In this document: piece after piece, positions 12,159 through 39,000 of the stretch
Numbering within the stretch: position 1 is the first letter of the stretch
How the letters are laid out: each line of letters opens with the position of its first letter
Source: a virus
Taxonomy: Duplodnaviria > Caudoviricetes
Virus record (IMG/VR): IMGVR_UViG_3300009435_000016
Location: 1-43,280 of that record
Strand: one strand, 5' to 3'
Length of the DNA: 43,280 nt
The notes under the pieces: model-generated
Told to the model about the DNA's origin: nothing
Seen by the model: only the letters and a program-made list of their open reading frames with translations
Database searches by the model: none
Made by a program: the position numbers and the translations under genes

Positions 12159-12549
12159 TGGTGGACCTGTCGGGAGTCGAACCCGAGTGTCGAGCAGCCT
12201 TTCGTTTTTGAGATACATGCTTGCTTAGTTTTGTCAGTGAAAGCGCACTTAGTTTGTCTTTCCATACTGTCGTCCATACGAATAGTGCACTACTAGCTTA
12301 ACCCATTATGGAATGGAGGTTGTCTAGCTGAGGATCTTATTTTACACCCAGGAACGTTCAGATCGGTTCCAGACCCGGATGTCTTAGCTCTCGAAAGAGC
12401 TAACGGCTTATTAGGCCGCCATCGCTACTTGAGCAATGAAGAAGTTGTTATTGTTATTGGCAATTACATTTGTTGAACAGTTTAAGACTGAATCTCGTCT
12501 GCATGCCCATAGAGTACTTGTACTACCCGGTCGATACCGGTGCAGGCCC
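12159..12549 (-). ncRNA. ssrA: tmRNA
   Basis: 5' GGGCCTG pairs with 3' CAGGTCC-ACCA with G3:U Ala determinant; T-arm TCGGG-TTCGACT-CCCGA; tag ORF 12461-12411 encodes ANNNNNFFIAQVAMAA then TAA TAA. Confidence 0.95.
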
Positions 12550-12638
12550 ATAGGGGGTGGACGCTTTCAATTTCTTATTAATGACTAACATTGGTTACTA
12601 CGTATTTCCCCAATGGTTTTGCTAATAATACTTTATTC

Positions 12639-12710
12639 AGTTAAGGACAGGAATTGAACCTGTGACGCCAGGGTTACCACCTGCGCTCTACCAAACTGAG
12701 CTACCTTCGT
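12639..12710 (-). pseudogene. degenerate tRNA (Thr-GGU-like)
   Basis: Good D arm (TAGCTCAGTTTGGTAGAGC) and T arm (ACAGG-TTCAATT-CCTGT), but only 4 acceptor pairs, shortened anticodon arm CAGG-TGGTAA-CCCTG, no CCA. Confidence 0.75.
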
Positions 12711-12845
12711 CCATAAGTGTTTGTATACTTTCCTGATACTCGGTATACAAGCGAGCAGTAAAGCCTCTCTAGCGAGGCACCAGTAGTAAAATCCACTAAG
12801 GATAGCTTGTTGCAAGCAACAGAGGCCCAGTGGATGTGACTAGTA

Positions 12846-15124: not shown

Positions 15125-15478
15125 TTAGAGTTCATTCGCCGAAACGAATTCAATCCAACCACCGTAGTATCCATTGTGTTCAGTACGTAGTTCCAGGTCT
15201 AAGTCAGCGAACTGACTTTTAACTGTATAGAAGCACGTATCTATTACTTCACATTCGTTATCATCTTTCGATGTAACGTCGGACTCAGTTACCGAGATAA
15301 CTGTTTGTCCGAGGAAGTAAGCAATATCCGTAGCCTCAAGAGGCAGGATATATGCATGAGCACAACAATCACCCATTGACCGATAGACTAGCTCATGAGT
15401 GTCAGAGACAAACGTGAGATAGTATCCATCAGGATCGAGTGTGATTTTTCTAATAGTATGTCCGATAAGTTGTCGCAT
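15125..15478 (-). CDS. conserved small phage protein (DUF7448-like)
   Basis: GDCC..AY and FY.V......L....HNGYYGG motif pattern. Confidence 0.6.
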   Translation of the reverse strand: MRQLIGHTIRKITLDPDGYYLTFVSDTHELVYRSMGDCCAHAYILPLEATDIAYFLGQTVISVTESDVTSKDDNECEVIDTCFYTVKSQFADLDLELRTEHNGYYGGWIEFVSANEL

Positions 15479-15489
15479 TGTAGAGTCCT

Positions 15490-15900
15490 CTACATAGCGT
15501 GAATGCTATGCGAGCACTTGCTGTAGAATATCTATATGGGACGGTGAGTCAGGACCTATTAGATTGGATTGGGGGCACCAGAACGGATGCATACATTCTA
15601 GTCCCAGGTATGCAAGCTGGGATAACGCTCGTGATTGTAGCGACTAGAAAACGAGTGACGCTGTTGAGAAGTGGAATCATCGTTTGGGTGCATACAGGCC
15701 ACCTGGGTATGCAAGCCAGGGATTGTAGTAATTCGACATTTAAGGGGGCCACAATGTCCGGCCTCCACAATCATACGAGTTGATACCTCGCAGTTAACCC
15801 GTTTGTAGGATCTCTTTGCAGAGATCCAGGAAGTGGAGCGACACTTTTACCTTGGTATCAACAAGGAGCGCTATTGACTAACAGTATTGCTACCGTTTCG
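15490..15900 (-). ncRNA. candidate large structured ncRNA with tandem pseudoknots
   Basis: No credible ORF; two GCAA-capped stems, 9-bp long-range helix, three hairpin loops with downstream complements. Confidence 0.65.
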
Positions 15901-16146
15901 CTACTCATGGGTGTCGGATTTAGGTCGCAAGAGTACTACAATTGGATTAGTAATACGTGAAGCAAGTACAATATTGCACATGGCTTCTGCTTTGAATCTG
16001 TCTTCTGGTTGAGGATGGGTATCGCCGCCGAAAATGAAGCCAGCGCAAGCTTGGAATGCTCGCACGAGCACTTCCTTTTCTAAATTGTTGACCGGGGGTG
16101 ATAGTACGACTACTCTATCTGATTGTTGGAGGGTATGTAGTGACAT
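15901..16146 (-). CDS. hypothetical protein
   Basis: 81 aa, GGAGG RBS. Confidence 0.65.
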   Translation of the reverse strand: MSLHTLQQSDRVVVLSPPVNNLEKEVLVRAFQACAGFIFGGDTHPQPEDRFKAEAMCNIVLASRITNPIVVLLRPKSDTHE

Positions 16147-16976: not shown

Positions 16977-19931
16977 TTAAGGCGCCCTGTGGTTAATTGC
17001 TGATACGATCCCTGCGAGCCATTTGCTTGCTGGTGCACTCTTGTTAGAGCGAATGATACGAATTAGCGTATTGGTTAGGTGACCACTGCAATGAGTACAC
17101 TCATAGAGGTGAACACCTCGCCCATCCTCATCGTGAGAATGTTTGTGGTGGTCTTGGTCGTGGAAGATGTACTCTGCGAGTGCTTCTTGCGGATTGGCTT
17201 GAGTCATGCATTGGTTGACAATGACATCGGCGGATGTCAGAATCTTTCCACCTACGTTGGCAGGTGTAAGGACATGCTTGCATACTGCGCTATGGGTTAC
17301 ACCCAATGCTGCGAGTACGACGTTGCCAGGGCTACTTAGTACACGGAATGCATTATTGATTCCGCTTTCGATGCCACGGCTATGTTCCAGAACCCAAATG
17401 GTTGTGGTTTCGTCGATGGTAAGGTCTGCTTGTTCAATAGCATGGTAGAGATTACCAGTTGCCTCGTCGATACGGCGGTATCGCTCTTCGGTGTCGTAGT
17501 TCTTTTCCATGATTTGAGCCCAGGCTTGGCCAAAGGCAGCAAGACCACATTTCTTGCGAAGTCCTTGCGTGTATACGTCAAGGTCTCCACCAGCAATGAT
17601 GTTGGCATGAATGCCTCGCTCTGCGAGCATTACAGGTAGAAGGTTAGCCAGAGGTACCGCTTCGGTTTCTAGGTGAAATTGGTCTTTGACCAATTGGAAG
17701 CTCTCGAATGCATAGTCATGACAGATATGTACGAGGTTGCCACCTCTCCAGCTAGTGCGAGCACTAGTGGGAATCCATTCGTCGATGCCAATGCGTTTGC
17801 CAGGCCAGCGCCATGCGCAAGGGTTGTCTTTGACAACAATTTCGCTTTTGGTTTCGCGGTCCCAGCCATTTTTGGCACAACCAGCATCGATGATGCGTTG
17901 GTTGAGCCATTTGTTCATCATCTCTAGAGGCAAGTCGCCTTCTTCGAGGTCTTCAGGGGTAAAGCGTACTTGACAGTGGTATTCGCCATTAGCGTCTTCG
18001 GTCCAGTTGGAACGAATAGCTGCAGCACGAAAGTCAGTCCACTCGGGTTTACGCTTAGCAGCGTCAACAGCCTCTTGAATGATTACGCTCATGGCATTGG
18101 CGCCTTCGATATCACCAATAGCAAGTAGTTGACTACGTGCATTGGTTGCGATACCGACAGGACCACGTTGATCCCAACGAAGGAATTCCAAGCCATCGGG
18201 ACTAGAGGAGTCATGATGGATTTTGATTCCTTCAGGTTCGATGTGGTAGACATTCTTGTCCACGAGATGGGTGAACAATTCAACCATATCGGGGTCGGTG
18301 CTAATGCCAACGATGTCACCATCGTCGTCGCCTTGCATTGCTACAGTGAGATCCTGAGGATTCATGAAGACAGTGCATTGGACAGGTTCATCACCACACT
18401 TTTGGTGTGCTGAAGGAGCCACTGCTACCAAGGTGCGTAGACCTTGAGACAGTACCATAGGGAAGCGGAATGCTGTAACTATGGATCCGGGACGTACGCC
18501 GGTAGCAACGATAGTACCTGGCTCGACAGTATTGTCGAGGATACAAATGCGTTGCTTGTAAGCGATACCCGCCCCTTGGGCGACGTGCCAAAGGATGCGT
18601 TCAAGCTTACCTTTGACGGCTTTGCGTAACATGGGGATTTGGGCAGCGTGTACAGGTGTGCCTGAATTGCTCATCAGTTTGACGAGCTGTACGACCTGCG
18701 CAGCGCGAGGATCGTCTTCAGTGATTTGACCGACGATACGGTCTACGCCACCTTTGCAGAGCTTAGCGAAAGCCTGATCGACTTTCTTCTTGATGATACG
18801 CACTGTAGTCTCATTGACTTCAATGTTTTCGATCATCTCGAAACAGCTCTTGAGTGTAGCGCGTGGATTGTTCCACACTTGCATGCAGCCAATGTACATA
18901 CCTTGTTGGAGGTAGACAGTGCCTTTCTCACGGTGAGCGAGTGCTTTCTCTTTCATTGACCCTTTGACTTGATTCCAGTCAAGGATAAACGCAGGTTGAT
19001 CAGCGCCTAGGCTCATGGGACGTACTGCTCCTTTGCAGAAGATTCCATGATTCGGATTGAGACCACGAATTTGCCAGCAGCAGATGCCATGCTTAGCAAT
19101 GAAGCCTGCAAAGGCAGGGTGGTCGACGTTCCAGATGCCACTACCGTCAGTACCAATGTCGTTTCCTTCTGGATCGACAAGTTCTTGGTATTGAACAGGG
19201 ATGTTAGCCCAGTATCCTTCGGGGAGTACTGCGCTATTGAGGCTATGGCCGTAAGCACTAAGGTTGACAGCATTGGGGAACATCTTGTTAAGGATGGCCC
19301 AGCCGCGACTTTGCATGTTCCAGCCTAGTCGTTCGCCTGATACTGCGATGTTATTAAGGTTCGCGGCATCCCATTCAGTGAGTGGGATTTCTTCACGAGC
19401 ATTAAGCTCTTTGCCAGTTAGTTCGTCACGCTTATGAGGTAGGAGGTTGACGAGTTGGAGAGCTACGGGTTGGTTTTGTAGACCATGAATGGTGTTGAGA
19501 GTTAGGCTAAGGAGGCCTGCACTACGCAACATCATATCGAAACGCCATTTCTGGACGTCTCTCATGCCTTCATTGCCATTGCCAGCGTCATACTTCTGTA
19601 GGAATTGACGATATTGTAGCACTGGTTCTGGGAGGTACAGACTACGATTGTGTACAGTAGCCGTGTACTTTCGTTGGAGACGAAGAATCATGTCGCCATG
19701 TTCTTTAGTGACAACGCCTAAGCTCCAATGATGGAGCAAGTCTACGTCATCTTCGGTGAAGATGTCTGAGAGTTCGTCGATGTCTTCGATAGTTTGTTGT
19801 TCTTCCATCGTGTAGCCGATGAGAGTAGCTTCTTCGGGACCGAAGCCGGAACCGATAAGTGCTTCGCAGTTGTATCGGTTGAGATTGTTGACGATTTTGA
19901 GTGCGCGCTTTGCGTGATCTTTAATGTGCAT
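16977..19931 (-). CDS. single-subunit two-barrel RNA polymerase (cellular RdRP / YonO-like)
   Basis: Ordered family motifs: TDGSG, WQIRG...CKG, AFRFP, catalytic MQGDDDGD (DxDGD), VGIATN, EAVDAAK; GGAGG RBS. Confidence 0.88.
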   Translation of the reverse strand: MHIKDHAKRALKIVNNLNRYNCEALIGSGFGPEEATLIGYTMEEQQTIEDIDELSDIFTEDDVDLLHHWSLGVVTKEHGDMILRLQRKYTATVHNRSLYLPEPVLQYRQFLQKYDAGNGNEGMRDVQKWRFDMMLRSAGLLSLTLNTIHGLQNQPVALQLVNLLPHKRDELTGKELNAREEIPLTEWDAANLNNIAVSGERLGWNMQSRGWAILNKMFPNAVNLSAYGHSLNSAVLPEGYWANIPVQYQELVDPEGNDIGTDGSGIWNVDHPAFAGFIAKHGICCWQIRGLNPNHGIFCKGAVRPMSLGADQPAFILDWNQVKGSMKEKALAHREKGTVYLQQGMYIGCMQVWNNPRATLKSCFEMIENIEVNETTVRIIKKKVDQAFAKLCKGGVDRIVGQITEDDPRAAQVVQLVKLMSNSGTPVHAAQIPMLRKAVKGKLERILWHVAQGAGIAYKQRICILDNTVEPGTIVATGVRPGSIVTAFRFPMVLSQGLRTLVAVAPSAHQKCGDEPVQCTVFMNPQDLTVAMQGDDDGDIVGISTDPDMVELFTHLVDKNVYHIEPEGIKIHHDSSSPDGLEFLRWDQRGPVGIATNARSQLLAIGDIEGANAMSVIIQEAVDAAKRKPEWTDFRAAAIRSNWTEDANGEYHCQVRFTPEDLEEGDLPLEMMNKWLNQRIIDAGCAKNGWDRETKSEIVVKDNPCAWRWPGKRIGIDEWIPTSARTSWRGGNLVHICHDYAFESFQLVKDQFHLETEAVPLANLLPVMLAERGIHANIIAGGDLDVYTQGLRKKCGLAAFGQAWAQIMEKNYDTEERYRRIDEATGNLYHAIEQADLTIDETTTIWVLEHSRGIESGINNAFRVLSSPGNVVLAALGVTHSAVCKHVLTPANVGGKILTSADVIVNQCMTQANPQEALAEYIFHDQDHHKHSHDEDGRGVHLYECTHCSGHLTNTLIRIIRSNKSAPASKWLAGIVSAINHRAP

Positions 19932-22318: not shown

Positions 22319-22402
22319 TGTTGTTGTTTTATCCTTTTTTTTGTGGCAGAGTTGCCATTAAAAAAGAGGTACCCGCCCCCTTAGTAGGAGACGGGTATGA
22401 GC

Positions 22403-23065
22403 TTAATTCTTGAGTGCTTTAGCCATCTTTAAGATGGCGTGTACTTCAGCGAGTTGGTTAGTAGCAATTGTTATCTGTGTTGCACCATGGACCATGTCTA
22501 CGTGGCTATCACCATCAACATGGTTGTGAGTGATACGACGCCAATTTTTTCTGTTGGTCTCAAGAGTAGTAATACGATCATTAAGATGAGCGATTACCTT
22601 GTTTAGTTGAGTATTGTCAGGTGCAGGTGCTTCGTCTGGTCGCGGCAAACGCTTTTTCATGCATTTCTTACAGACATGCCGATAAACAGCATATGTCTTA
22701 GGACCATAGAAGCAATGAGGATTGTCACAGGTTGCATCAGGTAGTGTTGGTGTTTCTGCAGTCTCTGCAGAAAGGATTTCTTTCATGATATGAATACAGA
22801 GAACCATCCATGCTTCGTTTGGAGGCGAGCCTATGGTGTCGGCTGCTCTGATTTGACGAAAGCTACGTGCCCAGGTTTGACTTATGTTGTTACCATAGCG
22901 AATGATAACAGAACGAGTTGTTGGACCTGTCTTGAAGTAAATGTCTAGAGGGTCTATTGTTAGAGCAGATACAGAGTAAGTACCGATGTATTTCTCTTTT
23001 TCTCTCTCGTTGTGTATTGAAGTGTAGGTAGGAGTGTTGAATAAGCGTGTAACTACGTAGTGCAT
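22403..23065 (-). CDS. hypothetical protein with internal Cys4 module
   Basis: CDNPHC...CKKC. Confidence 0.7.
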   Translation of the reverse strand: MHYVVTRLFNTPTYTSIHNEREKEKYIGTYSVSALTIDPLDIYFKTGPTTRSVIIRYGNNISQTWARSFRQIRAADTIGSPPNEAWMVLCIHIMKEILSAETAETPTLPDATCDNPHCFYGPKTYAVYRHVCKKCMKKRLPRPDEAPAPDNTQLNKVIAHLNDRITTLETNRKNWRRITHNHVDGDSHVDMVHGATQITIATNQLAEVHAILKMAKALKN

Positions 23066-23076
23066 GGTTTCATCCT

Positions 23077-23688
23077 TTAGAATTGGATATCAGCGTTGTT
23101 GTACGAGTGAATAACCTGAAGGATAGTTTTCTGTTTGTTGACGATGTCTTGTGTTGCATCGAGTAGTTGATTGAGGTTGCTAACCTTATAGATAGCTTGC
23201 GTGACTGAGCACGCCAGACCTTCTCTTTTGGTTACTGTACCGTTATCACGATGAATAACAGCTAGTAGGTTGTTGATGATAACAAGAGCAGCTTCATGCT
23301 CTTGTTGATAGTCGATATCACCGTTGTTGTAGGTAATGACGATGACGCCATCATGCCAATCGCTAAGGATGTATTCGTATTCGCCAACAAGGTGGTGAAT
23401 AACACGACGTTGATTGAAATTGAAGTCGCCTTTAATGATAGAAGGTTGACGATTTGAGTAGGTTGCAGTAACTGCGTCATCAACAAGTTTTTCTAGTTGT
23501 GCTTGAGTCCACTCAGTAGTGGTGGTCTCTGGGACAGTGAGCGATTGAATTGCTTTGGGTTCTCCACCGTGCATTGGGATACCATAGTCTCCTAAGCAGT
23601 CAGGGCATTCTTCTCGAAGAGGATGGAATCCTGCTTCTTTCGTTTGATTGTTTGAGCAGTGAGGGTCAGTGCATTTAGGGCTAGACAT
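23077..23688 (-). CDS. hypothetical protein with N-terminal Cys4 module
   Basis: CTDPHC...CPDC; AGGAG RBS. Confidence 0.7.
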   Translation of the reverse strand: MSSPKCTDPHCSNNQTKEAGFHPLREECPDCLGDYGIPMHGGEPKAIQSLTVPETTTTEWTQAQLEKLVDDAVTATYSNRQPSIIKGDFNFNQRRVIHHLVGEYEYILSDWHDGVIVITYNNGDIDYQQEHEAALVIINNLLAVIHRDNGTVTKREGLACSVTQAIYKVSNLNQLLDATQDIVNKQKTILQVIHSYNNADIQF

Positions 23689-23966
23689 TATATATCTCCT
23701 TTGAGGTTGTGAGCTTCTCTTGCCATTCTTTCGATGTCATGTTTGTCAGGGAGGTTAGCGGCGATAAACTTAGCATGATCTCCAAACCAACATTGTGTAT
23801 GTTTGTTATCAACGATAGGCAGGTTGGTGAAGTGTTGCTTGATGTAAGCTAGTCCTTGACAGTCAGCTTGTACGCTGGTTACGTGAAGTGCATCAACCCT
23901 TGGGTTGATTGCGGTACCTGTATGCCATTTGAAGTAACGTTGGCGGTCATAAATGATGTATATCAT
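23688..23966 (-). CDS. hypothetical phage protein
   Basis: 92 aa, TAATG coupling to the downstream gene. Confidence 0.65.
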   Translation of the reverse strand: MIYIIYDRQRYFKWHTGTAINPRVDALHVTSVQADCQGLAYIKQHFTNLPIVDNKHTQCWFGDHAKFIAANLPDKHDIERMAREAHNLKGDI

Positions 23967-23974
23967 TGCGTTGC

Positions 23975-24250
23975 CTAGTAAGGTGTGAAGGAAGCACCAT
24001 GAAGGTGCGTACGGCTGTTGACATTGTCGTCAGTGAGGAGTTGACCCTTAGGGGTAAGTAGGAGTGTGTTGTCTGTGACAGTGATCAGCTCTTGTTCAAG
24101 AGCTTGAGCTAGGGCTTTCTCCTCAATATCTAGGATGATGTTGACTGGAAGTTGTGCTTCTATCCATGGGATGTCCCCAAGGACATAAGTGAGTTCATTA
24201 CTGGTGGTTACTTTGACGCGCACATCTTTGATTACTCTAGACATTGGCAT
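23975..24250 (-). CDS. hypothetical protein
   Basis: 91 aa; C-terminal LLTPKG may indicate a winged helix. Confidence 0.55.
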   Translation of the reverse strand: MPMSRVIKDVRVKVTTSNELTYVLGDIPWIEAQLPVNIILDIEEKALAQALEQELITVTDNTLLLTPKGQLLTDDNVNSRTHLHGASFTPY

Positions 24251-24917
24251 TAACCCTACACTCTAGACAAGTTGGTGCAGAAGTATAGTGCGACCATGAT
24301 GGATTCTCAGAACAGTACTTGGTACAAGGTGTACCTTTATTGGCATCTGATACCCTTACAGTGTCTTTAGAAAGACACTGAGTACATATATGTCCACAAG
24401 ATAGTACTTGATTGAAGGGGTTGTTATCGCAGTTGGGATGTTTGCAGAGTTTCCAGTTGCTGTCTTGTTCTACAGGATCGTTCATTTGCTCGTGCAACAT
24501 GCTAATTCCTTTGATTGCCTCAGGATATGTTGCTTGTAATGCTGAACAACCTAAGCAGAGAGTTTTGCTTGTAGACTGATGATTACGAGAGCAATCCCAG
24601 TTGTAGCATGTAGAGTAGATAGCGTTAGTACCTTCGTCGAAGGGACAGTTTTCCTCTTCATTAGTCGGCGACAAACCTTTCTTTTCATCCATATCAGGTA
24701 ATCCTTTACTGTCCTTAAGACAGTTACTACATATATAAGGTGGGTATCCTTCATGTATGAAGGGGTAGTTGTTGTTACCGCAGTTGGGGTTGGGGCAGCA
24801 GTTACCTTGTTTGTGCCAGGGGATGGTGGTTTCCACCTGGGGTGTGCTGGTAGGTTCCTTAGCTAGTAGAGGTGGTTGCAGTCTCAAGCTGGCGTTGATG
24901 AAGTCATCGAATAGCAT
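24237..24917 (-). CDS. multi-zinc-finger protein (four Cys4 repeats)
   Basis: CPNPNC..CSNC, CYNWDC..CLGC, CKHPNC..CTQC, CTKYC..CLEC. Confidence 0.75.
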   Translation of the reverse strand: MLFDDFINASLRLQPPLLAKEPTSTPQVETTIPWHKQGNCCPNPNCGNNNYPFIHEGYPPYICSNCLKDSKGLPDMDEKKGLSPTNEEENCPFDEGTNAIYSTCYNWDCSRNHQSTSKTLCLGCSALQATYPEAIKGISMLHEQMNDPVEQDSNWKLCKHPNCDNNPFNQVLSCGHICTQCLSKDTVRVSDANKGTPCTKYCSENPSWSHYTSAPTCLECRVNANV

Positions 24918-25017
24918 GGTAGTACCTTAGTTATTGGTTAATACGGTCCCTTAGGGGACCATTAAAAAAGGGGTTAGTACCTGTTAGTGATATATGTAGG
25001 AGAGGGTTAGGGGCTTG

Positions 25018-25329
25018 TTATTTCTTGTGGTTACCTGGGGGTACCACGCTCCCTTTCTCCACCTTACATTCATTTGAGATTGTCTGGATTTCCTTAGTTT
25101 TCACTACTATTAGGTAGAGTTCATAACTTTTCGTCCGGCTGATATACGGCGTTCTAGTATATGTTTTGCTCTCCCGATAGGTGGTTTGTGGCCTGTAATT
25201 CCACTTATTTGCCTCGCGGAGTCCATAACTCTTCGATAACGTAGTTTGCTCGATTGAGCTATCTACTTTCTCCCTAGGGTAGAGAGACATAGGTTGTGAC
25301 CAACCTGGGCATAACCAAGGTTGGTCCAT
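25018..25329 (-). CDS. hypothetical protein
   Basis: 103-aa co-oriented ORF; weak RBS. Confidence 0.4.
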   Translation of the reverse strand: MDQPWLCPGWSQPMSLYPREKVDSSIEQTTLSKSYGLREANKWNYRPQTTYRESKTYTRTPYISRTKSYELYLIVVKTKEIQTISNECKVEKGSVVPPGNHKK

Positions 25330-25350
25330 TGAGTGCTTACGCGGAGGCTA

Positions 25351-26028
25351 TTATAGTTTCTCTGGCTGTGAGCATCGACTGCAGATGTTGCGGTCTCTGC
25401 TTGGTACGTAGTCAGTGATGAATCCAGTACAACGTTCATTGTAGAAGTTGAGCCGGACACATCTTGGTTTCTCGTCTTCTGATAGATAGTTACTATCTTC
25501 ATCCTTATCTGATAGGGTCTCAGTAATGGGGAATGCCGTTTCTTCAGTGACATCATCAGTGATGTCTTCGTCATCACTATGTGCAGCATAGACTGCTTTG
25601 TCAATACAGTCGTCACATACAATGTAGCCATTGAATGTGTTGAGGTTGATCTCGGTTTTACACTCGATACATGCGTACATGTTTGGTTGTGGCTCGCTAT
25701 CGCTCGCCGTTTCTACTGCGTTGGCAGTAGTTGTTGTCCCTTCGGGACAGGGTACAGAATTGGAGTCGCCCCTGCGGGGCTTGGGGTACATTGCGTTGAG
25801 TTGGGCCTCGTAACCGAGGCCGTTGGCCTTGGCATTACGAAAGTTGGAATGTTCATGCTTGAGGAGAGCAATGAGTAGTGCTCGGCGGAAATCCTTATCT
25901 CCGTTCTCATAAGCGATACTTAGACAGAATCTATCAATAGTATCTCCGATGGTAAGAGCAAGAGAGATGAACCAGTGTGTAGCCATAGCTACAAAGACTG
26001 TGAGTGTGTAGAAGAACTTGAGAATCAT
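25351..26028 (-). CDS. membrane-anchored acidic protein with Cys motifs
   Basis: Start moved to MILKFF (AGGA, after module); CIEC..CDDC and C..C..CSRC. Confidence 0.7.
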   Translation of the reverse strand: MILKFFYTLTVFVAMATHWFISLALTIGDTIDRFCLSIAYENGDKDFRRALLIALLKHEHSNFRNAKANGLGYEAQLNAMYPKPRRGDSNSVPCPEGTTTTANAVETASDSEPQPNMYACIECKTEINLNTFNGYIVCDDCIDKAVYAAHSDDEDITDDVTEETAFPITETLSDKDEDSNYLSEDEKPRCVRLNFYNERCTGFITDYVPSRDRNICSRCSQPEKL

Positions 26029-26093
26029 TGTATGTCCTGATGTTGCTGACGGAAGTGTCATTAAAAAGGTGGCCCCCTTGCGGGGGCCTTGGA

Positions 26094-26366
26094 CTAGACG
26101 TGACTTTTGTTGATGAGGTCGTGAACTACGCGATCCCTGTCAGTGACAGTTGTGCTGGTCGTAGCAAGCAGAGATTGGTGGTTTTCGTAGATGCGACTGT
26201 GAAGGTGCAGTTCCGTGTTCTTGACAGCATAGTCGCAGCATGGGGTGATCCAATAGACTTCGCAGTCATTCCAGAGTCCGGCAATGCGTTCAGCTTCAAC
26301 CTGGGTATCCGCTTCCACATAAGTAACAGTATCATCGTTATGAACGGCGTAGTAGATGTTATCCAT
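26094..26366 (-). CDS. hypothetical protein
   Basis: Start moved to MDNIYY (AAGGAG RBS). Confidence 0.7.
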   Translation of the reverse strand: MDNIYYAVHNDDTVTYVEADTQVEAERIAGLWNDCEVYWITPCCDYAVKNTELHLHSRIYENHQSLLATTSTTVTDRDRVVHDLINKSHV

Positions 26367-26376
26367 AATGAACTCC

Positions 26377-26466
26377 TTAGGGTAGTAGAGTAAGGTTGAT
26401 GGTGTAGAGCATGACAAGGAAGTGGTAAGCGAAGAGAGCTAGTAGACTGGTGAGGAGGTACTTCAT
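26377..26466 (-). CDS. small membrane peptide (29 aa)
   Basis: MKYLLTSLLALFAYHFLVMLYTINLTLLP; AGGA RBS after module. Confidence 0.55.
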   Translation of the reverse strand: MKYLLTSLLALFAYHFLVMLYTINLTLLP

Positions 26467-26556
26467 TGGCTAGTTCCTGTGTTATCTGTGAATAGATAGG
26501 CGTAAGCCTATCCGTTAAAAAAGGTGGGCCCCTTGCGGGGCCCTTGGTACTAGCTG

Positions 26557-26889
26557 TTACTTTGCGGGGTACTCAAATTCGTAACCCTGATGACAGCTAT
26601 CGATGCTGCTGAAAGTTATCGACCAGGTATTGTCGTGTCGTTGGAATCGGTATGCTCCAGGGTGACCAGTGATCTTGAAGGGGTGGTCTTCAGGCGCGAC
26701 AACCTCCTTAGTATCCTCACTATCAGGTACGAGGGTAGTAGCGATAGAGAGACTGCAAACACCATCTCTAGCATAGTGCTTAGCTGCAGTAGTATAGAGC
26801 CAACCATTGGGTACCTTCATGCGGATGACGCTTAGGTTTCGGTTTTCCAGGATAGTTTCAGTAGTATGTAGCGGAGTAATATCACTCAT
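26557..26889 (-). CDS. hypothetical phage protein
   Basis: RMKVPNGWLY...TTLVP motif; sits between two modules. Confidence 0.7.
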   Translation of the reverse strand: MSDITPLHTTETILENRNLSVIRMKVPNGWLYTTAAKHYARDGVCSLSIATTLVPDSEDTKEVVAPEDHPFKITGHPGAYRFQRHDNTWSITFSSIDSCHQGYEFEYPAK

Positions 26890-26960
26890 GTCTTTCTCTC
26901 TTCTGGTGGCGGAATGCCATAAAAAAGAGGGACCCTAAGGCCCCTCAGTATCATGATTAG

Positions 26961-27290
26961 TTATCCTTTGTAGTTGAGGAAGAGAGTGTAGCCGTTGTTG
27001 AATGCGAACTCAGTTTCACCACTATGGGGATGAAACTCTTGAATGAAGAATTTGCACTCTTTGACATGAGCGACTAGTAGTTTTGCGAACGACTCTCTGT
27101 CCGCATATTTCATTACCAGGTTATAGGTATAGAGATCATCACTGTTATCAGCGAAGTAGACGATGTTACCATCTCCTGGAGAGATACTATGGACGTGGCA
27201 GCTGTCATGCATGTGACAAGCCCCAATAGGGCTACATGGTTCATTCTTCTTCTCTTCGAGCATGATGGTCATTCGTTGAGCGTCAGTCAT
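26961..27290 (-). CDS. hypothetical protein
   Basis: 109 aa, AAGGA RBS. Confidence 0.7.
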   Translation of the reverse strand: MTDAQRMTIMLEEKKNEPCSPIGACHMHDSCHVHSISPGDGNIVYFADNSDDLYTYNLVMKYADRESFAKLLVAHVKECKFFIQEFHPHSGETEFAFNNGYTLFLNYKG

Positions 27291-27475
27291 GGTTTATCCT
27301 TGCTATCTGGTCGATAGCTGTTGTGTCGTTACAGAGTCTAAGATTAGTAGCGGAGTGCCACCATCAAATAAAAAGAGGTACCCGGTATGTCGTTGATCGT
27401 ATATAGTCAATAACAATCAGTACAAACAGCTAGTACAATAAAAAGGGTGAGGCCCTAAGGCCCCACCCACACTAT

Positions 27476-28225
27476 CTAGTTCATGCAGTTCGCAATTAGC
27501 TTATTCTGCTCTGCGTATCCAGTTGCCCAGTCGTTGGCAGCTTTCTTGGTATTGCGACTCGCAAGGATGAGAGTTCCACCCTTGTTGTCGACGAGGACGA
27601 TATCGTATCCACTGTTCATGGACACGGTCACGCGCACAGTAGCCCTGGCTGTGATCTTGATACCGTAGACTAGTCCATCGTGGCCACTCTTCTTGGGCGT
27701 CACAGTGAACTGGTTGCCTGCATTGGCTACGGTAGCCACCTGAGTAAGCAGCTCACTCCACTTGGCACCACCATTCTTGGTGTTGGTGAACGTACGGCCA
27801 CCAACCCACTGACGGCAGCGCACATTGTCTAGTACCTGGCTAGGGATAGTACCCTTGATTCCCAGATGTTGTAGTAGAGGGATGAAACCCCACTTGGGTT
27901 GTGTAGCCACGGTTTCTTCCTTGGGTTGAGGTTGAGGGGTTGTTGCGATCACTTCCTTCTCCTTCTTGTTCTCAGCGTGGATGTAGTTGGCCAACGTGGT
28001 GTTGAACGCAGCCAGCTTCTTGAGGTAGGACGCACTTGCCTTGCCCATCAGGACTTGGTGAGTGCCTTCGAGTTCATACAGTTGATTCTGCACGACATCG
28101 ATCTTGTCTGCGCTCTTGATGTTGTCCAGAAGGAACAACACGTTCTTCTTTACAGTGTTGTCGAGGCTCCGTGCGTTGGTGGTGGTGGTGGTGAACGCTG
28201 CGACTGCTTCTTGTACTAGGGTCAT
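27476..28225 (-). CDS. hypothetical protein (helical N-domain, linker, basic C-domain)
   Basis: 249 aa, GGAG RBS, bounded by modules. Confidence 0.8.
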   Translation of the reverse strand: MTLVQEAVAAFTTTTTNARSLDNTVKKNVLFLLDNIKSADKIDVVQNQLYELEGTHQVLMGKASASYLKKLAAFNTTLANYIHAENKKEKEVIATTPQPQPKEETVATQPKWGFIPLLQHLGIKGTIPSQVLDNVRCRQWVGGRTFTNTKNGGAKWSELLTQVATVANAGNQFTVTPKKSGHDGLVYGIKITARATVRVTVSMNSGYDIVLVDNKGGTLILASRNTKKAANDWATGYAEQNKLIANCMN

Positions 28226-28289
28226 AATGACTCCGGTCTAATGGCGGTATTGCCATTAAAAAAAGGGAGACCCGAAGGTCTCCCACGCA

Positions 28290-28481
28290 CTACTTGAACA
28301 AGCTCAGCTGTTCAGATTGTGCCTTGGCTTTAGCTGCCTCTTTGCGACGCACCTCTGCCCTCAACAGACTAGCATGACAACTGCTGTGTACGTACCCCTT
28401 GGTATCATGCTTTTGAACACGATTACCAGGTGAGATAGGAATCCAGCATGCGTTGCATGTGCTAGAGTATTGCGCTTTCAT
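28290..28481 (-). CDS. small Zn-finger protein
   Basis: AQY..TCNAC..I.PG......YVHSSC. Confidence 0.7.
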   Translation of the reverse strand: MKAQYSSTCNACWIPISPGNRVQKHDTKGYVHSSCHASLLRAEVRRKEAAKAKAQSEQLSLFK

Positions 28482-28747
28482 TATTTCTCCTCTGCAATGT
28501 AGTTAAGGTGCTGCTCCATGCACCACACCATATTGCTGTTGATTTCGCTGATGTTGCTATCCTTGGTCATGTTGACAGTACATGCTTCGCCAAGCAAGTA
28601 GATCACCTCGGTAGTATCTGGTTTGTTGTAGATACCGTTGTTGGCATTGAGGTACCCGATGGTGTACTTGCCCACTGGGTAGAAGAGGCAAGTGATGAGT
28701 ACTGCTGCGGCAAAGGTGCTAGCGATTTCGGTGATGAGATTCTTCAT
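28481..28747 (-). CDS. small membrane-anchored protein
   Basis: N-terminal TM; AAGGA RBS. Confidence 0.7.
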   Translation of the reverse strand: MKNLITEIASTFAAAVLITCLFYPVGKYTIGYLNANNGIYNKPDTTEVIYLLGEACTVNMTKDSNISEINSNMVWCMEQHLNYIAEEK

Positions 28748-28815
28748 GAGAATTTCCTTGGTGTTGATGGCGTAAGTGCCATTAAAAAAAGGGGTAGCCT
28801 TAGCTACCCCTTTGC

Positions 28816-29061
28816 TTATCTCTTAACTAGATTCAGCATCACTCCATTTGTCCAGAATTCGAAGACACCATCGCCAACCTCGTATAAGATTGAGTTGTGT
28901 CTAACCTTAATCGAAACGCAGCCTGTGTTATGGCGTGTGATTTGAATCTTGTCGCGATCAAGGACATCCCCGATGAAGATCCCGTTGGTGGTCATCGAGA
29001 CCTCCGACGAGGTTTTGATTTTCTGGGTAATGGTTTGCCTAAGCTTCTTGGGCATTTTCAT
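28816..29061 (-). CDS. hypothetical protein
   Basis: Start moved to MKMPKK; the track extension reads through the repeat module. Confidence 0.65.
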   Translation of the reverse strand: MKMPKKLRQTITQKIKTSSEVSMTTNGIFIGDVLDRDKIQITRHNTGCVSIKVRHNSILYEVGDGVFEFWTNGVMLNLVKR

Positions 29062-29136
29062 GTCGTGCTCTCTCGTGTTGATGGCTTGATTGCCATTAAA
29101 AAAAGAGGGAATGCATATTGCACCCCCTCTACTCAC

Positions 29137-29448
29137 TTAGAACAGTAGAGCCTCATTCGTTGCTGGGCAGATGATGGAGAAGCCCGTCTCTTGATGAAAC
29201 TCCTCACATTCTTCACAGTACGTACCAATGTCTCTTACGATACTATCGGTCTCCATATCGAGCTGGATGGCTGAGATGTCGCGATTGATAGCAGCGAGGC
29301 GTTCATTCCTTGCTACCCTGAACTGGCTAGACAGCCAGCTACCATCAAACATTCTCTCTGCGCTCTGAATGGTATCGAGACACCTGTTGCGCTCAGCCAA
29401 GAGCTGATTGTATTGCCAGGTGAGGTCGGTAGTGCGTGCGTCGGTCAT
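29137..29448 (-). CDS. hypothetical protein, coiled coil plus CxxC
   Basis: 103 aa between two modules; AGGA RBS. Confidence 0.7.
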   Translation of the reverse strand: MTDARTTDLTWQYNQLLAERNRCLDTIQSAERMFDGSWLSSQFRVARNERLAAINRDISAIQLDMETDSIVRDIGTYCEECEEFHQETGFSIICPATNEALLF

Positions 29449-29521
29449 GGTGTTGTCCTGTCTAATGGCTTGATTGCCATTAAAAAAGAGGTATCCACCC
29501 CGAAGGGCAGATACCTATATA

Positions 29522-29872
29522 CTAACTCGCTAACCTCAGTTCCCCGAAGAGTGGGGTAGGTGTCTCTACTTCTTCCGGCAAAGTTTCTCCATCATCTGGA
29601 TCATCATCACCATTGTCGTCATCATCAGCTGGGATGTAGTCCGTCCAGTCGTATGAGTAGAGTGATACTTGAAGTCTCGCTGTCGCACTTAGCTTAGCTA
29701 CCCAAGCCTCCATGTCGCTACTGTCCATAGCGATATGTAGCGTTTCATCTTCTTGAATAATTGCGGTTACCTCACGCAGTGTCCAGACAAGTGACGCGCC
29801 ATATAGGCTAGCCAGTATGTTAGTCCATGCGTTGGGGTGCATAGTAAAACCAGTTTGCTGTTGGCCGATCAT
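29522..29872 (-). CDS. hypothetical acidic protein
   Basis: Asp-rich tail; between two modules. Confidence 0.7.
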   Translation of the reverse strand: MIGQQQTGFTMHPNAWTNILASLYGASLVWTLREVTAIIQEDETLHIAMDSSDMEAWVAKLSATARLQVSLYSYDWTDYIPADDDDNGDDDPDDGETLPEEVETPTPLFGELRLAS

Positions 29873-29938
29873 TAATTACTCCTTAGTTGGTGTCATTAAA
29901 AAAGGTTGCCCACCCCGAAGGGCAGACAACCACACTAA

Positions 29939-30250
29939 CTATGCTTGAGTATCAGCTTTGGAGAGATCAACCTTCACTGAGCCGAGACCTTTACCCTTGG
30001 CAACAGCACTGGCAGCAGCACCGTTGATGAGAGTGATAGTATTGTTCAACTTGTTAACCATTCCATTGTATACATCAGGACTAAGCACACCCAGGATAAC
30101 TGCGAACACGGGGAACAGCAGTGCGATTTGGATGACGAAGTAGAGTGCGATATCAAGCAGGCCCAGCTTCCAGATGAGGAAACCAATGAATCCAGCGCTG
30201 AATGCAGACATGGCGACGAACAAGACGGTTTGTTGGGTGATGCGTGTCAT
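29939..30250 (-). CDS. 2-TM membrane protein
   Basis: Two hydrophobic helices; AGGAG RBS. Confidence 0.75.
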   Translation of the reverse strand: MTRITQQTVLFVAMSAFSAGFIGFLIWKLGLLDIALYFVIQIALLFPVFAVILGVLSPDVYNGMVNKLNNTITLINGAAASAVAKGKGLGSVKVDLSKADTQA

Positions 30251-30323
30251 AATAATGTACTCCTAGTACATGGCTTGATTGCCATTAAAAAAGAGGGAGC
30301 CCGAAGGCCCCCTGCTGCTACTC

Positions 30324-30437
30324 TCAATCAGTAGGTTTGTGCTCTGGCCAATCAGCCGGATTGTACTCCGGTTGTTGACGACAACGCCAAGCGCTACTGA
30401 TGACTGCACAGATGAGGTATAAGATGATGAATGTCAT
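30324..30437 (-). CDS. small membrane peptide (37 aa)
   Basis: MTFIILYLICAVISSAWRCRQQPEYNPADWPEHKPTD; ATGA overlap. Confidence 0.55.
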   Translation of the reverse strand: MTFIILYLICAVISSAWRCRQQPEYNPADWPEHKPTD

Positions 30438-30532
30438 GAGAGGCTCCAGAGGAAGTGAACCCATAGGCCCACGAGTGTGATAGTGCCTGCGATTGCAAAC
30501 ACGTTAGTTGCGATTGCTTCAAGTCGGCTCAT
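30434..30532 (-). CDS. small membrane peptide (32 aa)
   Basis: MSRLEAIATNVFAIAGTITLVGLWVHFLWSLS; ATGA overlaps on both sides. Confidence 0.6.
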   Translation of the reverse strand: MSRLEAIATNVFAIAGTITLVGLWVHFLWSLS

Positions 30533-30594
30533 GCTACTACCATCAACGTAAGTGTGATGACGCAGTGTAGGATGACCAGGTATCGAGCGTTCAT
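30529..30594 (-). CDS. small membrane peptide (21 aa)
   Basis: MNARYLVILHCVITLTLMVVA; AAGGAG RBS after module. Confidence 0.6.
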   Translation of the reverse strand: MNARYLVILHCVITLTLMVVA

Positions 30595-30660
30595 AGTAAC
30601 TCCTTAGTTAGTGTCGTAAAAAAGAGGTGACCTACCCCTAAGGGTAAGCCACCTAACTAG

Positions 30661-31170
30661 CTAAGCTACACGCATGTAACTGTTGAACGTGATGGGTGCG
30701 TACTTCGCAGCATCGATACGATCCCAGAGGTTATCAAGCTCAAGGTCTTCCAGGTTGATCTCTTCCGTAACGACTTCGCTATCCCAACGTGCAGGGATGA
30801 CAGGTGCGTTAAGCGCATCTACTTCTTCCTGGCTAGGGAGAGCAGCGATATCGGCTGGTACCACGAAGAACATGGTAGCGCCTCTCAACTTAGCTTCGTA
30901 GCGAGCAAGGGCGTTGGCGAACATACTGACAGGTGCAGCAGTTTCTTCTCCTAGTTCACTACCGAAGAATTGTGCTTCTTCTTGTGCTGTGGTCAGTACG
31001 GCGAGATTGTGGTAGTCGAGACCGAAGTCCCAACTCATGATTGCAGGCAGTGCTACCAGGAGGGTAGTCATCATGGTGGCCCAGACGCCTACCATGGTGG
31101 TAAGGCCGTGACCGTTGACGAGGGAGATTGCTTCGACGAGAACTTGAACGTTGTCCATTGTGGACTCCAT
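30661..31170 (-). CDS. acidic membrane-anchored hypothetical protein
   Basis: One TM, Glu/Asp-rich; start 31170 or 31158. Confidence 0.7.
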   Translation of the reverse strand: MESTMDNVQVLVEAISLVNGHGLTTMVGVWATMMTTLLVALPAIMSWDFGLDYHNLAVLTTAQEEAQFFGSELGEETAAPVSMFANALARYEAKLRGATMFFVVPADIAALPSQEEVDALNAPVIPARWDSEVVTEEINLEDLELDNLWDRIDAAKYAPITFNSYMRVA

Positions 31171-32010
31171 ATCTAGTGTGTTGACTGGTACTGTTGTCTA
31201 TCGAGTGTGGGCCTTGCTATACAGTGAGTTTGCCCACTCACACTGTGTATAGGTACGTATAGTACGTTACCGTATACGGCTGTTCCCTATGATAGGGGGT
31301 GTAGATAGGCTGGGACAGGGTATTCCCCTGCTGTAGCACCTATGACTACGTTTACTACATACGCTTGTTTTTACCGACATGAGCGCTGTCCAGGACTGGG
31401 TACCTGGCACGTCAGACTTGCACCCACTCACTCGTTGCTATGCCCCTATAGAGCATGCGCATACGGTGAACTTGTTGTGCTACAGGATTCGGACCTGCTC
31501 TCTAATATGGCTCTTGTACCATATAGGTATGTGCTTTCACCCCACATACTAGGCGGTTCATTTACGGGTTGAACTCTAACCCACTGGTACTACCCCCAGC
31601 TAGACGCCCCCCATGACAGTGGTATGCATACAGGTGGTAGAGTACGTGTGCCTACAGGCATGATGATGTGCGTGTGCATGGGCGCTACCCACATGCTAGG
31701 TATCCATGGTATGGGCGTCACCCACATACCTACCTACGTACATCATTGTACTACTACCCCTATACACTCAAGGGGCTATACATACGGGGTCTCACCGTAT
31801 GGCCTATATAGCCATGGCGTATGTGCACCCATGCTTGGTACATGAGTGGGTATACGCCCTCTATATAGGTCTTGTTATATCAGGGTCTTTAAACCTACTA
31901 CTACTACATGATGGGCTTATTGGTATGCCTTCTCATGTAGTGCGTGTCATTAAAAAAAGAGAGAGCATGTGCTCTCCCCTATGTGTATGCGTATATGCAC
32001 TAGCCCTATG

Positions 32011-36053: not shown

Positions 36054-39000
36054 ATGAAGAAGCTTCCAATCATGCTTCAGAATGGTCTTGTCTTAGATAC
36101 AGAGACCACTGGTTTGGATCGTGGAAGCGGCATGCACGAGCTTGCCTTCTACGATATAGACAAGCGCAAGATTAGTGAGTTCATTCTCGATCCTAACTAT
36201 GTCGAGACATACACTAGCCCACTTCAAGAGACTACTCGCTTAGCGAGTAGTCCTAGCGATGTACATATTGGCAAGTCGCCTAAGCAGTGGATGGATGTCT
36301 ACCGCGCTCAGCTAGTTATGGACGATCGCATTAGCAAGAGTGCTAGTGACAAAGAGGTTATGGGGGCGCTTGCCGAACATGAGCCCTTCCTGCATAAGGC
36401 TATCACTAGCGGGAAGCACCCGCACTTGCAGGGGAAGAACGAGAGCCCTGCTATATTTGCACAGAGACGTGACACATTCGCTAAAGCGGGTATCGCCCTA
36501 GAGTCTGATAAGACTACTATCAAACAGGTGTTAGGCGAGGGTGGACCGTTAGAGCGTGCGACTCGTGGAGGAGACCACGCACAAGGTCGTACTCTCTGGA
36601 TTGCAAATGCTCCTTTCGAAGCGAAGCAGGTTGGTGCGCAACTCGGAGCTATGGGAGAGGGTGCTGCAGCTGTACACAAGAAGTACTTAGAGACCGCTGG
36701 TAACTCTCCTGATCCGTACTACGTCACAGGCAGCGAAGTGAACCTTGCTAGAAGCAAGGCTCAGATGTCTGGTGACTGGACTACAGTCCATAAAGCTTAT
36801 AAGAAGCATGTTCCTAAGGCTGGTGAAACAGCCGTCAGAGATATCCAGGATATCTTGAGATCGGTTATGAGTTATGGCCATCAGCTAGGACTCACAGATA
36901 TTGACGATCCGTACTTCGGCACAAGTATTGATATGAGTTCTCGTATCATGGGATCTCTGGATTCCGACAAGGCTGTCGCTCGAAAGAACCTCGTTACACC
37001 TGAGCTACATAGGGCAGCAGAGGATGTTAAGGTAGAGTTTGGTGTCTTGTCTAAGGGCACTGAGTGGGCTGATGCTATGGAGCAAGTCCAAAGCGATACT
37101 GCCCTCGGTAAGCAATACAAGGCAAGTGCACTTAAAAAAGAAGGACCGCTGCATGAAGCCGCTACGTACCTTGCGCGTCTTGGTGTGGTCCACGCCGACC
37201 ACCAAAGGACGTCTCTTGTCAAGCGAATCGTACGGGCAGAAGTAGACTTTGCCGAAAAAGGAGAAACTTACCAGAAGGCTGGTGTGAATGGTTTTGTAGA
37301 TATGCAGCAGAGCACTCCTGCTGGTGGACAGAGGACTGTCGTCCGGTTGGATCACGACCGTATACCCATTAAAACCAGGGAGGAGAACGCACAGCATCTT
37401 AAGGCTGAAAAGCGATATGGTAACGTGGACATCGATGCGGAGGTTGGTGCCGTCGCTGACTACACTGCAGGTGCTACGTCTAAGGTGGATCGCCGTAGGC
37501 TGCTAAGCAAGTATCTAGAAGAGCAAACTGGCGATTCGCTTGAAAACTCAGTAGCTAAGCATGCTGATACCATACTCGGTACTAGTGGCAAGCAGGTAAG
37601 CCAACTAGGCTCCACTGGGAAAGCGCTCGGTGGCGTACTAGATGCCTTCAAGTCTATCAACACTCCGAAGGGGGTAATGATCGGTGGGGCGGTTGCAGCT
37701 GGCATTACTGTCGCTGGTATGGCAGCGACAGCTGCGGGTCGTCCACCAGTTCAAGATGCACCTAGTGTTGTTACGTACAACTACCAAGAGTGGTTAGATC
37801 GACAGGCTAGCTTCTCTGGCCAGCGTGGTGCTGGCGAGCAGATGGAGGGTATGTCTCACCGTGGTGTCGCCGGTGAACGACGCAAGCAGATTACAGACTT
37901 TGGTAGCCCCTATCAGGGCATCCAGGGCAGCCAGGTAGTCTTCCACGACCAAGAGCTTCTAAGAGAGCGAGAGAGCTTCCTACGGCAACAGTACGGAGCG
38001 GCCCACTTTGATCCTAAGTTTGGATTACATGGCGCCTTCGGTCCTTTTAAGGCAGCGTACTCTAAGCGCAATAGCTTCTTCAGCGACGGTACCCCTGTGC
38101 AGCAAGGCAAGCACTCAGGGCTGCGTGGGGATCTGCTAGAGATCGACTTCAGTGATAAGAAGTGGAAGATGAGCGTCGAGGATGCTGATACTATTGTCGT
38201 GAAGCGTGGTGGCATACGAGGAGGAATATCCAGTTTCTTCGGTATGAATCGCTCATACAGCTTCCGTCTCGCCGGTATCGATGCTCCTGAAACCAGCCAT
38301 GGTAGTACCAGCTACCATGCTCCTCAGCCTGGAGCTGAAGCAGCTAAAGCCGTCCTTGCTAATCTAGTTAAAAGCTCAAAGAGCTTAAGCCTTGTATACG
38401 ATCCTAACCAAGCTACCTATGGTCGCATGATGGGTGTCGTCATGTCAGAGGGCAAAAACCTTAACCTCGAAATGGTCAAGCAGGGTAATGTTGCGGCTCT
38501 CCCCTTCTACGCTAAAGGGCGTAAGCCTATGGTGGACTATGCGCCGTTCCTAGCGGCCGAGACACGAGCCCATACGGCAGGAAAGGGTATCTGGTCCCAA
38601 CCATACTACCAAGCCTTCAGAGACGTCACTCAAGCAGCGGATCAAACGGTTACGTTCAACACTCTTACAAGGAAGAGCAAGCTTGTACAGAACGTCTGGA
38701 AGATGGACATGGTCTCTATGATGGAGCAGTCTCAAGCAGAGGGTTTCTACAACTCAGCGAATGCTATCGAAGCATCACGTATCGGCAGTGGCGCAGGGGG
38801 CTTTGGACCAGACAATGTGAAGCCTGTGTTGTTTTCTCAGCCTACCAGCCATTATAATACATATCTGAATGAGATGCTACAGGATGTTGGGACTTGGAAC
38901 AGAAGTCGTGGATCGAAGCATCAGCAGAATAAGTTCAGTCGCAAGGGAGGATATGGTAAGCTGGACCAGACTTTGGTATTGGATACCATGAGCAACACCA

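Follow-up and report, generated by a model that had tools for sequence, protein, structure and literature searches.

The 43,280-base stretch of DNA that we analysed (the window) is the whole of a viral record that carries a terminase gene, a tmRNA, a tRNA-Lys and a degenerate tRNA-Tyr. The finding lies in a 422-nt gap on its minus strand, between the stop codon (15901) of an 81-aa ORF of no family (15901-16146, minus strand) and the start (15478) of a DUF7448 gene (PF24240, phrog_2650; 15125-15478, minus strand). All of the genes neighbouring the gap share its strand, no terminator-like site is found in the gap, its single promoter-like site is weak, and the intergenic signal that is repeated in the 22-32 kb region is not present in it; the gap is thus probably a piece of a long transcript. 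The repeated signal, found in at least eight copies of 23-43 nt at 22343-31977, consists of a hairpin, a U run and a conserved minus-strand word and is a candidate terminator-promoter unit of the phage polymerase. A 984-aa single-chain polymerase-like protein with a GDDDGD motif is encoded on the minus strand at 16977-19931; it has no sequence match in Pfam, PHROG, the PDB or cultured phages, its predicted fold matches the RdRP-like polymerases of PF05183 (Atlas), and relatives of 29-35% identity occur in four viral records, including one complete 183-kb genome. On the plus strand, a 1032-aa protein with a staphylococcal-nuclease domain is encoded upstream of the terminase (36054-39152).

We rejected the gap as a protein-coding gene, and no conserved reading frame was found in it, in keeping with the preliminary description, which had read it as RNA. 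The 58-aa ORF inside the gap belongs to no Pfam family and its sole match is an identical record; its codon score (-0.04) falls below those of 12 of the 13 neighbouring ORFs (0.04-0.24) and in the upper range of the null for non-coding sequence (90th percentile, -0.006). The three other frames of the gap, examined by the same Pfam and codon-score tests, scored from -0.10 to -0.41. Searched against Rfam, the gap gave no match either at gathering score or at E ≤ 10, as would be expected of the novel RNA that had been suggested, and the same search recovered ROOL at 362.6 bits in locus L498 and GOLLD at 196.2 bits in locus L495 as positive controls.

The gap contains two copies of a predicted H-type pseudoknot of 32-37 nt, in which a stem 1 of variable sequence (4-7 bp) is combined with the loop CUUGCAUAC and its partner GUAUGCA, giving a CU loop 1, a 7-bp stem 2 and no loop 2. 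Copy 1 (15689-15720, minus strand) has a 5-bp stem 1, the 2-nt loop 1, a stem 2 formed by UGCAUAC and GUAUGCA, and a 6-nt loop 3; copy 2 (15588-15622, minus strand) has a stem 1 of 5-6 bp and different sequence with the same loop and partner. The two loops lie at 15715-15707 and 15616-15608 and the partners at 15695-15689 and 15594-15588, so that the copies start about 99 nt apart, and the sequence between them is unrelated. A third copy (12721-12757, minus strand) lies outside the gap and has a 6-bp stem 1 and a stem 2 in which one C-G pair is replaced by a compensating U-A pair; it can alternatively be drawn with a 1-nt loop 1 and an 8-bp stem 2. The loop/partner pattern has two matches in the window and none in 100 shuffles of it, a strict H-type pseudoknot arose in none of 300 shuffles of the gap region, and a generic knot scan of both strands of the window returned three knots, all on the minus strand and all of the CUUGCAUAC type. 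Within the gap the pairing is ambiguous, as either loop of copies 1 and 2 can pair with either GUAUGCA. In a nested ensemble, in which knots cannot be scored, stem 2 of copy 1 is favoured as a plain hairpin (0.83) and a competing helix, ACUAGAAUG/CGUUCUGGU, is predicted behind copy 2 (0.97). Moreover, an upstream strand, UUCUAGUC (15642-15649, minus strand), could pair with loop 3 of copy 2 (15603-15596; post hoc p of 0.003 against shuffled upstream sequence), and this loop has a second partner, UUCUGGU, 3′ of copy 2.

Copy 3 ends 9 nt before a tRNA-Tyr(GUA)-like gene (12638-12711, minus strand), a degenerate call of 38.6 bits with a partly unpaired acceptor stem that lies upstream of the tmRNA. 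This degenerate tRNA may be a processing signal ahead of the tmRNA. The tmRNA itself (12159-12549, minus strand) encodes the tag ANNNNNFFIAQVAMAA.

The preliminary description had proposed that the gap encodes a new RNA of about 400 nt with three tandem pseudoknots, and every helix that it listed is indeed present on the minus strand where it had been placed, including both UUCUAGUC/GACUAGAA and GAUUGUGG/CUACAAUC. A GCAA-capped hairpin (15880-15897, minus strand) immediately follows the stop codon of that 81-aa ORF. Next comes P1, a predicted 9-bp closing helix (15874-15866/15630-15622, minus strand) with a mean pair probability of 0.94 in the nested ensemble, at the end of which copy 2 begins. 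P1 would enclose the predicted P2 domain (15779-15862, minus strand), in which a 9-bp helix (15862-15854/15787-15779) encloses AAGUG/CACUU and an 8-bp GCAA hairpin, and the 5′ strand of P3 (15765-15773, minus strand), which has two alternative partners (15728-15721 and 15640-15632). In the nested folding the 3′ strands of P1 and of P3 in its second pairing together occupy 15622-15640 (minus strand). The alternatives arise because CUACAAUC occurs twice (15728-15721 and 15640-15633) and GAUUGUGG can pair with either occurrence; this duplication, P1 and copy 3 had all escaped the preliminary description. Folding of successive prefixes predicts that P3 uses the first partner at 190-260 nt and the second from 285 nt; at full length, when the knots are imposed, the state with the second partner lies 2.3 kcal/mol below the other. 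On these models the duplicated partners may be either a switch by design or what is left of a duplication.

The first of the proposed tandem knots, GACAUU/AAUGUC (15735-15763, minus strand), is doubtful and may be a plain hairpin. Its 4-bp GGCC stem competes with AGGCC/GGCCU and with a rival pairing to loop 3 of copy 1, and one such loose knot is found in 3.7% of shuffles. As a recurring module it was rejected, none of the 21 viral loci with its loop pattern having a flanking stem on inspection. The two CUUGCAUAC knots of the gap stand beyond chance, and they are not strictly tandem.

Is the whole 300-400 nt then one ornate trans-acting RNA, a scaffold or a partner of the single-subunit polymerase that possibly switches between two folds? 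Its length of 420 nt without a supported gene, the well-defined P1, P2 and P3 (pair probabilities of 0.92-0.94 in the nested ensemble) and the predicted refolding during synthesis that the duplicated partners give all speak for it, as does L512, a locus of record G015 that holds another ORF-free multi-helix RNA with an inner knot and duplicated partners. Folding stability does not help to decide. Perfect helices of at least 8 bp number 3 where 0.9 are expected, a count reached by 7% of shuffles, and those of at least 7 bp number 9 where 3.6 are expected, four of them being cross-pairings of the two knots. The minimum free energy gives z-scores of -3.5 for 427 nt, -3.2 for the 320-nt core and -3.8 for the 5′ 126 nt of that core. 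A control across the contig (15 shuffles per window) found z-scores of -3 or lower in 14 of 49 sampled 320-nt sense-strand windows, with a mean of -2.2, and so we dropped the argument from stability, a value of -3.2 being ordinary for an over-folded contig. Across positions 1-31000 the sense (minus) strand folds better than its shuffles almost throughout, several coding windows falling below -5.

Homology searches weigh further against one large RNA. With nhmmer, L252 alone among the loci of the viral, metagenome and genome scans fell below E 0.15; it is the sole metagenome match of the large domain and is identical to the window, and the homologue search that had been suggested for a 400-nt RNA thus returned no independent relative. 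With blastn, the 427-nt stretch found only chance matches of 25-30 nt among cultured phages and plasmids. A pattern requiring both modules matched 2 viral and 111 metagenome loci and was rejected: except for L252, the matches listed are palindromic DNA repeats or chance. In addition, there is no terminator, no promoter-like site at the start of the proposed RNA and no copy of the repeated intergenic signal. None of the four records with polymerase relatives contains the motif by pattern, DNA match or model match, so the suggested role as a polymerase partner finds no support. We regard the single large trans-acting RNA as improbable, and a 400-nt class as possible but unproven; the part of that proposal that holds is an uncatalogued non-coding pseudoknot of 32-37 nt. 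The odds are about even that the 290-nt domain closed by P1 is a discrete RNA. As matters stand the large RNA is a singleton that adds little until relatives turn up.

The pseudoknot, by comparison, recurs. Our pattern scans specified only the loop and its partner and did not ask for stem 1, so the frequency of stem 1 among the matches is informative. In a scan of 18 of the 64 parts of the viral collection, 6 of 94 clusters had a stem 1 of at least four Watson-Crick pairs, where the mixing of flanks predicts 0.28. When a G-C closing pair was forced, 4 of 21 viral clusters, a set that overlaps the first, had this stem against 0.45 expected. In bacterial and archaeal genomes the corresponding figure was 1 of 54 clusters against 0.92 expected, again with a forced G-C pair. 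Viral sequence is enriched for the motif; cellular sequence is not. Among the six viral clusters, L116, where the copy lies antisense inside a gene, is probably chance; it was kept in alignment A1 and model R1 and left out of alignment A2, and L139, with an irregular stem 1, was excluded from both alignments.

Outside the window we count about ten settings: the L131/L149 lineage, L142, L144, L063, L070, L080, L091, L006, G015 and L417, the last a contig of a bacterial genome bin. L070, L080 and L091 are alike and may form one subfamily. Most of the other records have a single copy. In 14 aligned copies all 154 of 154 cells pair and 6 of the 11 pairs change on both sides, comprising all four pairs of stem 1 and two pairs of stem 2 in one sequence each. 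The covariation of stem 1 is circular because the copies were chosen for having a stem 1, and the independent part of the evidence is its enrichment. Across unrelated viral records five of the seven pairs of stem 2 do not vary, an invariance that is partly an artefact because the patterns required the stem-2 sequence. The flanks of the knot are not conserved.

Variation in stem 2 is sparse. The U-A variant seen in copy 3 had a stem 1 in none of 12 viral clusters, so that no second example was found. The knot of L512, in which the terminal U-A pair of stem 2 is replaced by A-U, was found with a covariance model of stem 1 only (19 records); when 46 further viral records were searched with a model, 19 matches reached E ≤ 0.1, and inspection showed both stems in none of them. 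A degenerate scan anchored on tRNAs, covering 29 of the 64 parts, yielded no further stem-2 variants and was dominated by one recurring sequence family, and no cultured phages with the contexts of L512 or L131 were found. The literature searched contains no description of the motif, including the portion covered of a listing of 10,000 candidate viral RNAs (PMC10690425); the literal CUUGCAUAC appears in print in unrelated papers only, and the accessible part of PMC8632103 holds no matching antiterminator. We conclude that this is a real, uncatalogued, portable phage pseudoknot, present in three copies in the record.

The same half-sites raise the question of whether TGCATAC...GTATGCA is a DNA inverted repeat for a dimeric protein, the RNA fold being incidental. 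At many metagenome loci (L174-L274) they build arrays of ~51-nt palindromic DNA repeats (half-sites TTTTGCATAC and GTATGCAAAA) that are REP-like and lack stem 1. In the motif, however, the half-sites are separated by anything from 10 to 24 nt, the covariation of stem 1 surrounds the first half-site alone, and the orientation is that of transcription. We consider a DNA-level function very improbable.

The 15 assembled copies and that of L512 lie in the sense of the neighbouring genes or tRNAs in every case except L116. In several records a tRNA or tRNA-like hairpin follows closely, its +1 position lying 5 nt from the knot in L501, 5 nt in L498, 4 nt in L503/L504 and 8 nt in L508. In L498 the knot is followed by a minimal acceptor/T hairpin and then by a ROOL RNA; here the stretch 1542-2223 comprises the minimal acceptor/T-arm hairpin, followed directly by the ROOL RNA, and a tRNA-Ser. 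In L495 the knot lies in a tRNA cluster with GOLLD, and in L070 and L080 it also lies within tRNA clusters. In L091 a tRNA-Thr ends 6 nt ahead of the knot and a start codon comes 18 nt after it, in L417 the knot comes 9 nt after a stop codon, and in L144 and L006 it is intergenic. The tRNA link covers part of the family, since among 112 distinct unselected viral matches only 5 are followed directly by a tRNA, and L070, L080, L144, L006, L512 and window copies 1 and 2 have none within 15 nt. We saw no tRNA-like cut site after copy 2.

Further structures surround the knot in some loci. In L512 (1395-1628, minus strand) it lies inside a 230-nt ORF-free multi-helix RNA candidate with duplicated pairing partners and a terminator-like hairpin at its end, which has no Rfam match at E ≤ 1. 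In L496 (G010) it is contained in a hairpin-rich stretch of ~1.6 kb between tRNA-Glu and tRNA-Ala that has no convincing gene and no Rfam family other than tRNA. In a variant of the L131 lineage (L102/L136/L164), a 26-bp perfect inverted repeat of the upstream flank of the knot replaces the start of the downstream tRNA-like gene.

In L091, L144, L006 and window copy 2 a start codon follows the knot after 18-130 nt, which would fit another function, that of a translational operator or leader element for the gene behind it, comparable to the T4 gene 32 pseudoknot. The geometry is shared. In the accessible parts of the sources, CPK1 H-type pseudoknots such as the T2/T4 gene 32 mRNA operator are described with a 1-2-nt loop 1 and a 6-7-bp stem 2 (PMC11262651, PMC3014915), and copies 1 and 2, with L1 of 2, S2 of 7 and L2 of 0, likewise have a loop 1 that crosses stem 2 and stacked stems and belong to phage RNA. 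By its predicted geometry the motif is a CPK1-type knot. Unlike CPK1 knots, it has a CU loop and stem-2 sequence that are near-invariant across unrelated viral records, and unlike the gene 32 operator it is found before tRNAs and ROOL and inside larger non-coding RNAs, with no tie to a single SSB gene. As the knot precedes tRNA genes, which are not translated, in at least four lineages, and the downstream genes looked unrelated from their first residues, an operator function seems somewhat less probable than a trans-acting RNA, itself improbable.

A further possibility is that the knot serves as a decoy or docking site for a protein. Cut out of abundant phage RNAs or displayed on them, it would bind a conserved host protein such as a defence nuclease, three copies raising the dose. 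The invariance of stem 2 while stem 1 is free, and the viral enrichment, would fit such a role, although the invariance comes partly from the search pattern. The preliminary description had pointed to type III antitoxins, and in the available excerpts of two sources toxI, cptI and tenpI are, like the motif, H-type knots of 30-40 nt, often with an A-rich loop 3, that can occur as several non-identical copies (PMC12283969, PMC13682666). The likeness does not extend to their organisation. The window copies, 99 nt apart, form no tandem array or head-to-tail repeats (identities of 11 nt only), and the gap lacks the promoter-repeat-terminator-toxin layout and any Rfam match to these antitoxins. No toxN, cptN or tenpN family was found among the 36 ORFs scanned, the downstream gene being DUF7448, and a text search did not find the motif in the tenpIN supplement sequences. 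Moreover, the flanks, which are the site of toxin contacts in type III antitoxins, are not conserved here, and most other records have one copy. We consider a decoy fairly unlikely.

The invariant core and its position at boundaries could also mark a small self-cleaving ribozyme or ligand-binding core, formed by the knot with an upstream strand that pairs with loop 3 and setting processing sites. Three copies embedded in larger RNAs have a 5-7-bp upstream partner for loop 3 (post hoc p of 0.08, 0.003 and 0.11), and pairing with it gives a double-knot order that resembles a permuted HDV fold, but the partner is missing in stand-alone copies. Only four tRNAs with intact anticodons lie behind the knot, and three of them are tRNA-Asp, tRNA-Asn and tRNA-Tyr. 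Asp, Asn and Tyr tRNAs belong to the queuosine set. In preQ1-I riboswitches the C at the end of the loop is free for pairing with the ligand. All 14 aligned copies of the motif have this C paired with G, and with no Rfam match a preQ1-I identity was rejected.

A fold of HDV type does lie on the same transcript. At 16906-16852 (minus strand), 70 nt after the polymerase stop codon and with no adjoining tRNA, we find a complete minimal HDV-like (theta-type) fold, with a weak Rfam HDV match (E 1.1) and a full descriptor match, which would cut the minus-strand transcript ~1 kb upstream of the gap. The 690 nt behind the polymerase gene (16976-16292, minus strand) are ORF-poor and contain no Rfam family, and at 16833-16780 (minus strand) a 5-bp hairpin has a loop, GUUACAGC, with complementarity to CUGUAA, which occurs twice immediately behind the HDV-like element. 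Theta ribozymes, as described in the accessible text of PMC10879173, process the 3′ ends of phage tRNAs and are, like the motif, small knotted RNAs at phage tRNA boundaries; unlike it they lie 3′ of the tRNAs and have a nested double knot and a catalytic C, the motif being mostly 5′. The P1-P2-P3-P1.1 descriptor found its sole match in the element ending at 16852 and none in the gap, so that a theta or HDV-like identity of the motif was rejected, and neither this descriptor nor a hammerhead core scan matched inside the region, where Rfam gives no ribozyme or riboswitch match either. We judge a ribozyme or ligand-binding core somewhat less likely than a decoy.

The features tested, then, set the motif apart from GOLLD, ROOL, type III antitoxins, theta ribozymes and preQ1-I riboswitches. 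The gap RNA does share with GOLLD (RF02032) and ROOL (RF03087), as they are presented in the accessible part of bioRxiv 10.1101/2024.12.08.627333, the character of a phage non-coding RNA with predicted pseudoknots in a region bearing tRNA or tmRNA, but it matches neither model, is much shorter and has a large domain without a homologue family.

The reading that we favour, at a probability of roughly 40%, is that the knot caps RNA ends where a long phage transcript is cut and shields them from nucleases. The geometry of the predicted knot, its recurrence, its sense orientation and its placement at boundaries are read directly from the sequence; the capping function is proposed. A tRNA or tRNA-like hairpin 4-10 nt downstream would direct an RNase P cut, and the cut would leave the knot with a short tail of 4-10 nt as the 3′ end of the upstream RNA, a poor substrate for exonuclease loading. 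The usual minimum 3′ overhang is ~7-10 nt. The accessible part of PMC5714204 describes that RNase R needs a 3′ overhang to act on duplex RNA and that PNPase needs a helicase. With the knot behind a tRNA, the end protected would instead be the new 5′ end of the message that comes next. In the window, copy 2 would cap the 290-nt domain closed by P1 and copy 1 a shorter folding intermediate. By analogy with known knots, the CU loop could form base triples of the C-G-C and U-A-U type in the major groove of stem 2, and these would explain the invariance of the CU loop and stem 2.

We counted in favour of an end cap the shuffles, the enrichment of stem 1, the compensated stem 2, the tRNA-adjacent copies and the sense orientation, and against it that half of the copies have no tRNA behind them, that copy 1 is internal and that competing hairpins are predicted. 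A plain roadblock, moreover, needs no invariant 16-nt sequence, and the invariance therefore points equally to a bound protein, a ligand or catalysis. A bolder combination can be imagined, in which unrelated phages place at tRNA leaders, to time RNA maturation, a minimal ribozyme or ligand-sensing knot of a new class with the 16-nt core as its active site, and the 290-nt domain is a two-state RNA that exposes either knot during transcription; we hold this to be about as improbable as the large trans-acting RNA.

The closest mechanistic parallel to the proposed end cap is eukaryotic. In MALAT1, according to the accessible text of PMC4824109 and PMC13170383, an RNase P cut is combined with a protective triple helix: RNase P cuts at a downstream tRNA-like element (mascRNA) and a compact tertiary fold protects the resulting 3′ end, which is the logic proposed here. 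Unlike the phage motif, MALAT1 is a eukaryotic lncRNA with a U-A-U triple helix, and the parallel is one of mechanism and not of homology.

If the end-cap reading is true, bacterial viruses would make and protect RNA ends by means of a fixed pseudoknot combined with tRNA-like punctuation, in parallel with MALAT1/mascRNA, and this would bear on the excision of ROOL-type RNAs and of phage tRNA clusters. A portable 32-nt stabiliser could also serve RNA engineering. If the invariance instead reflects a bound host protein or catalysis, the motif would lead to a new host target or to a new ribozyme class.
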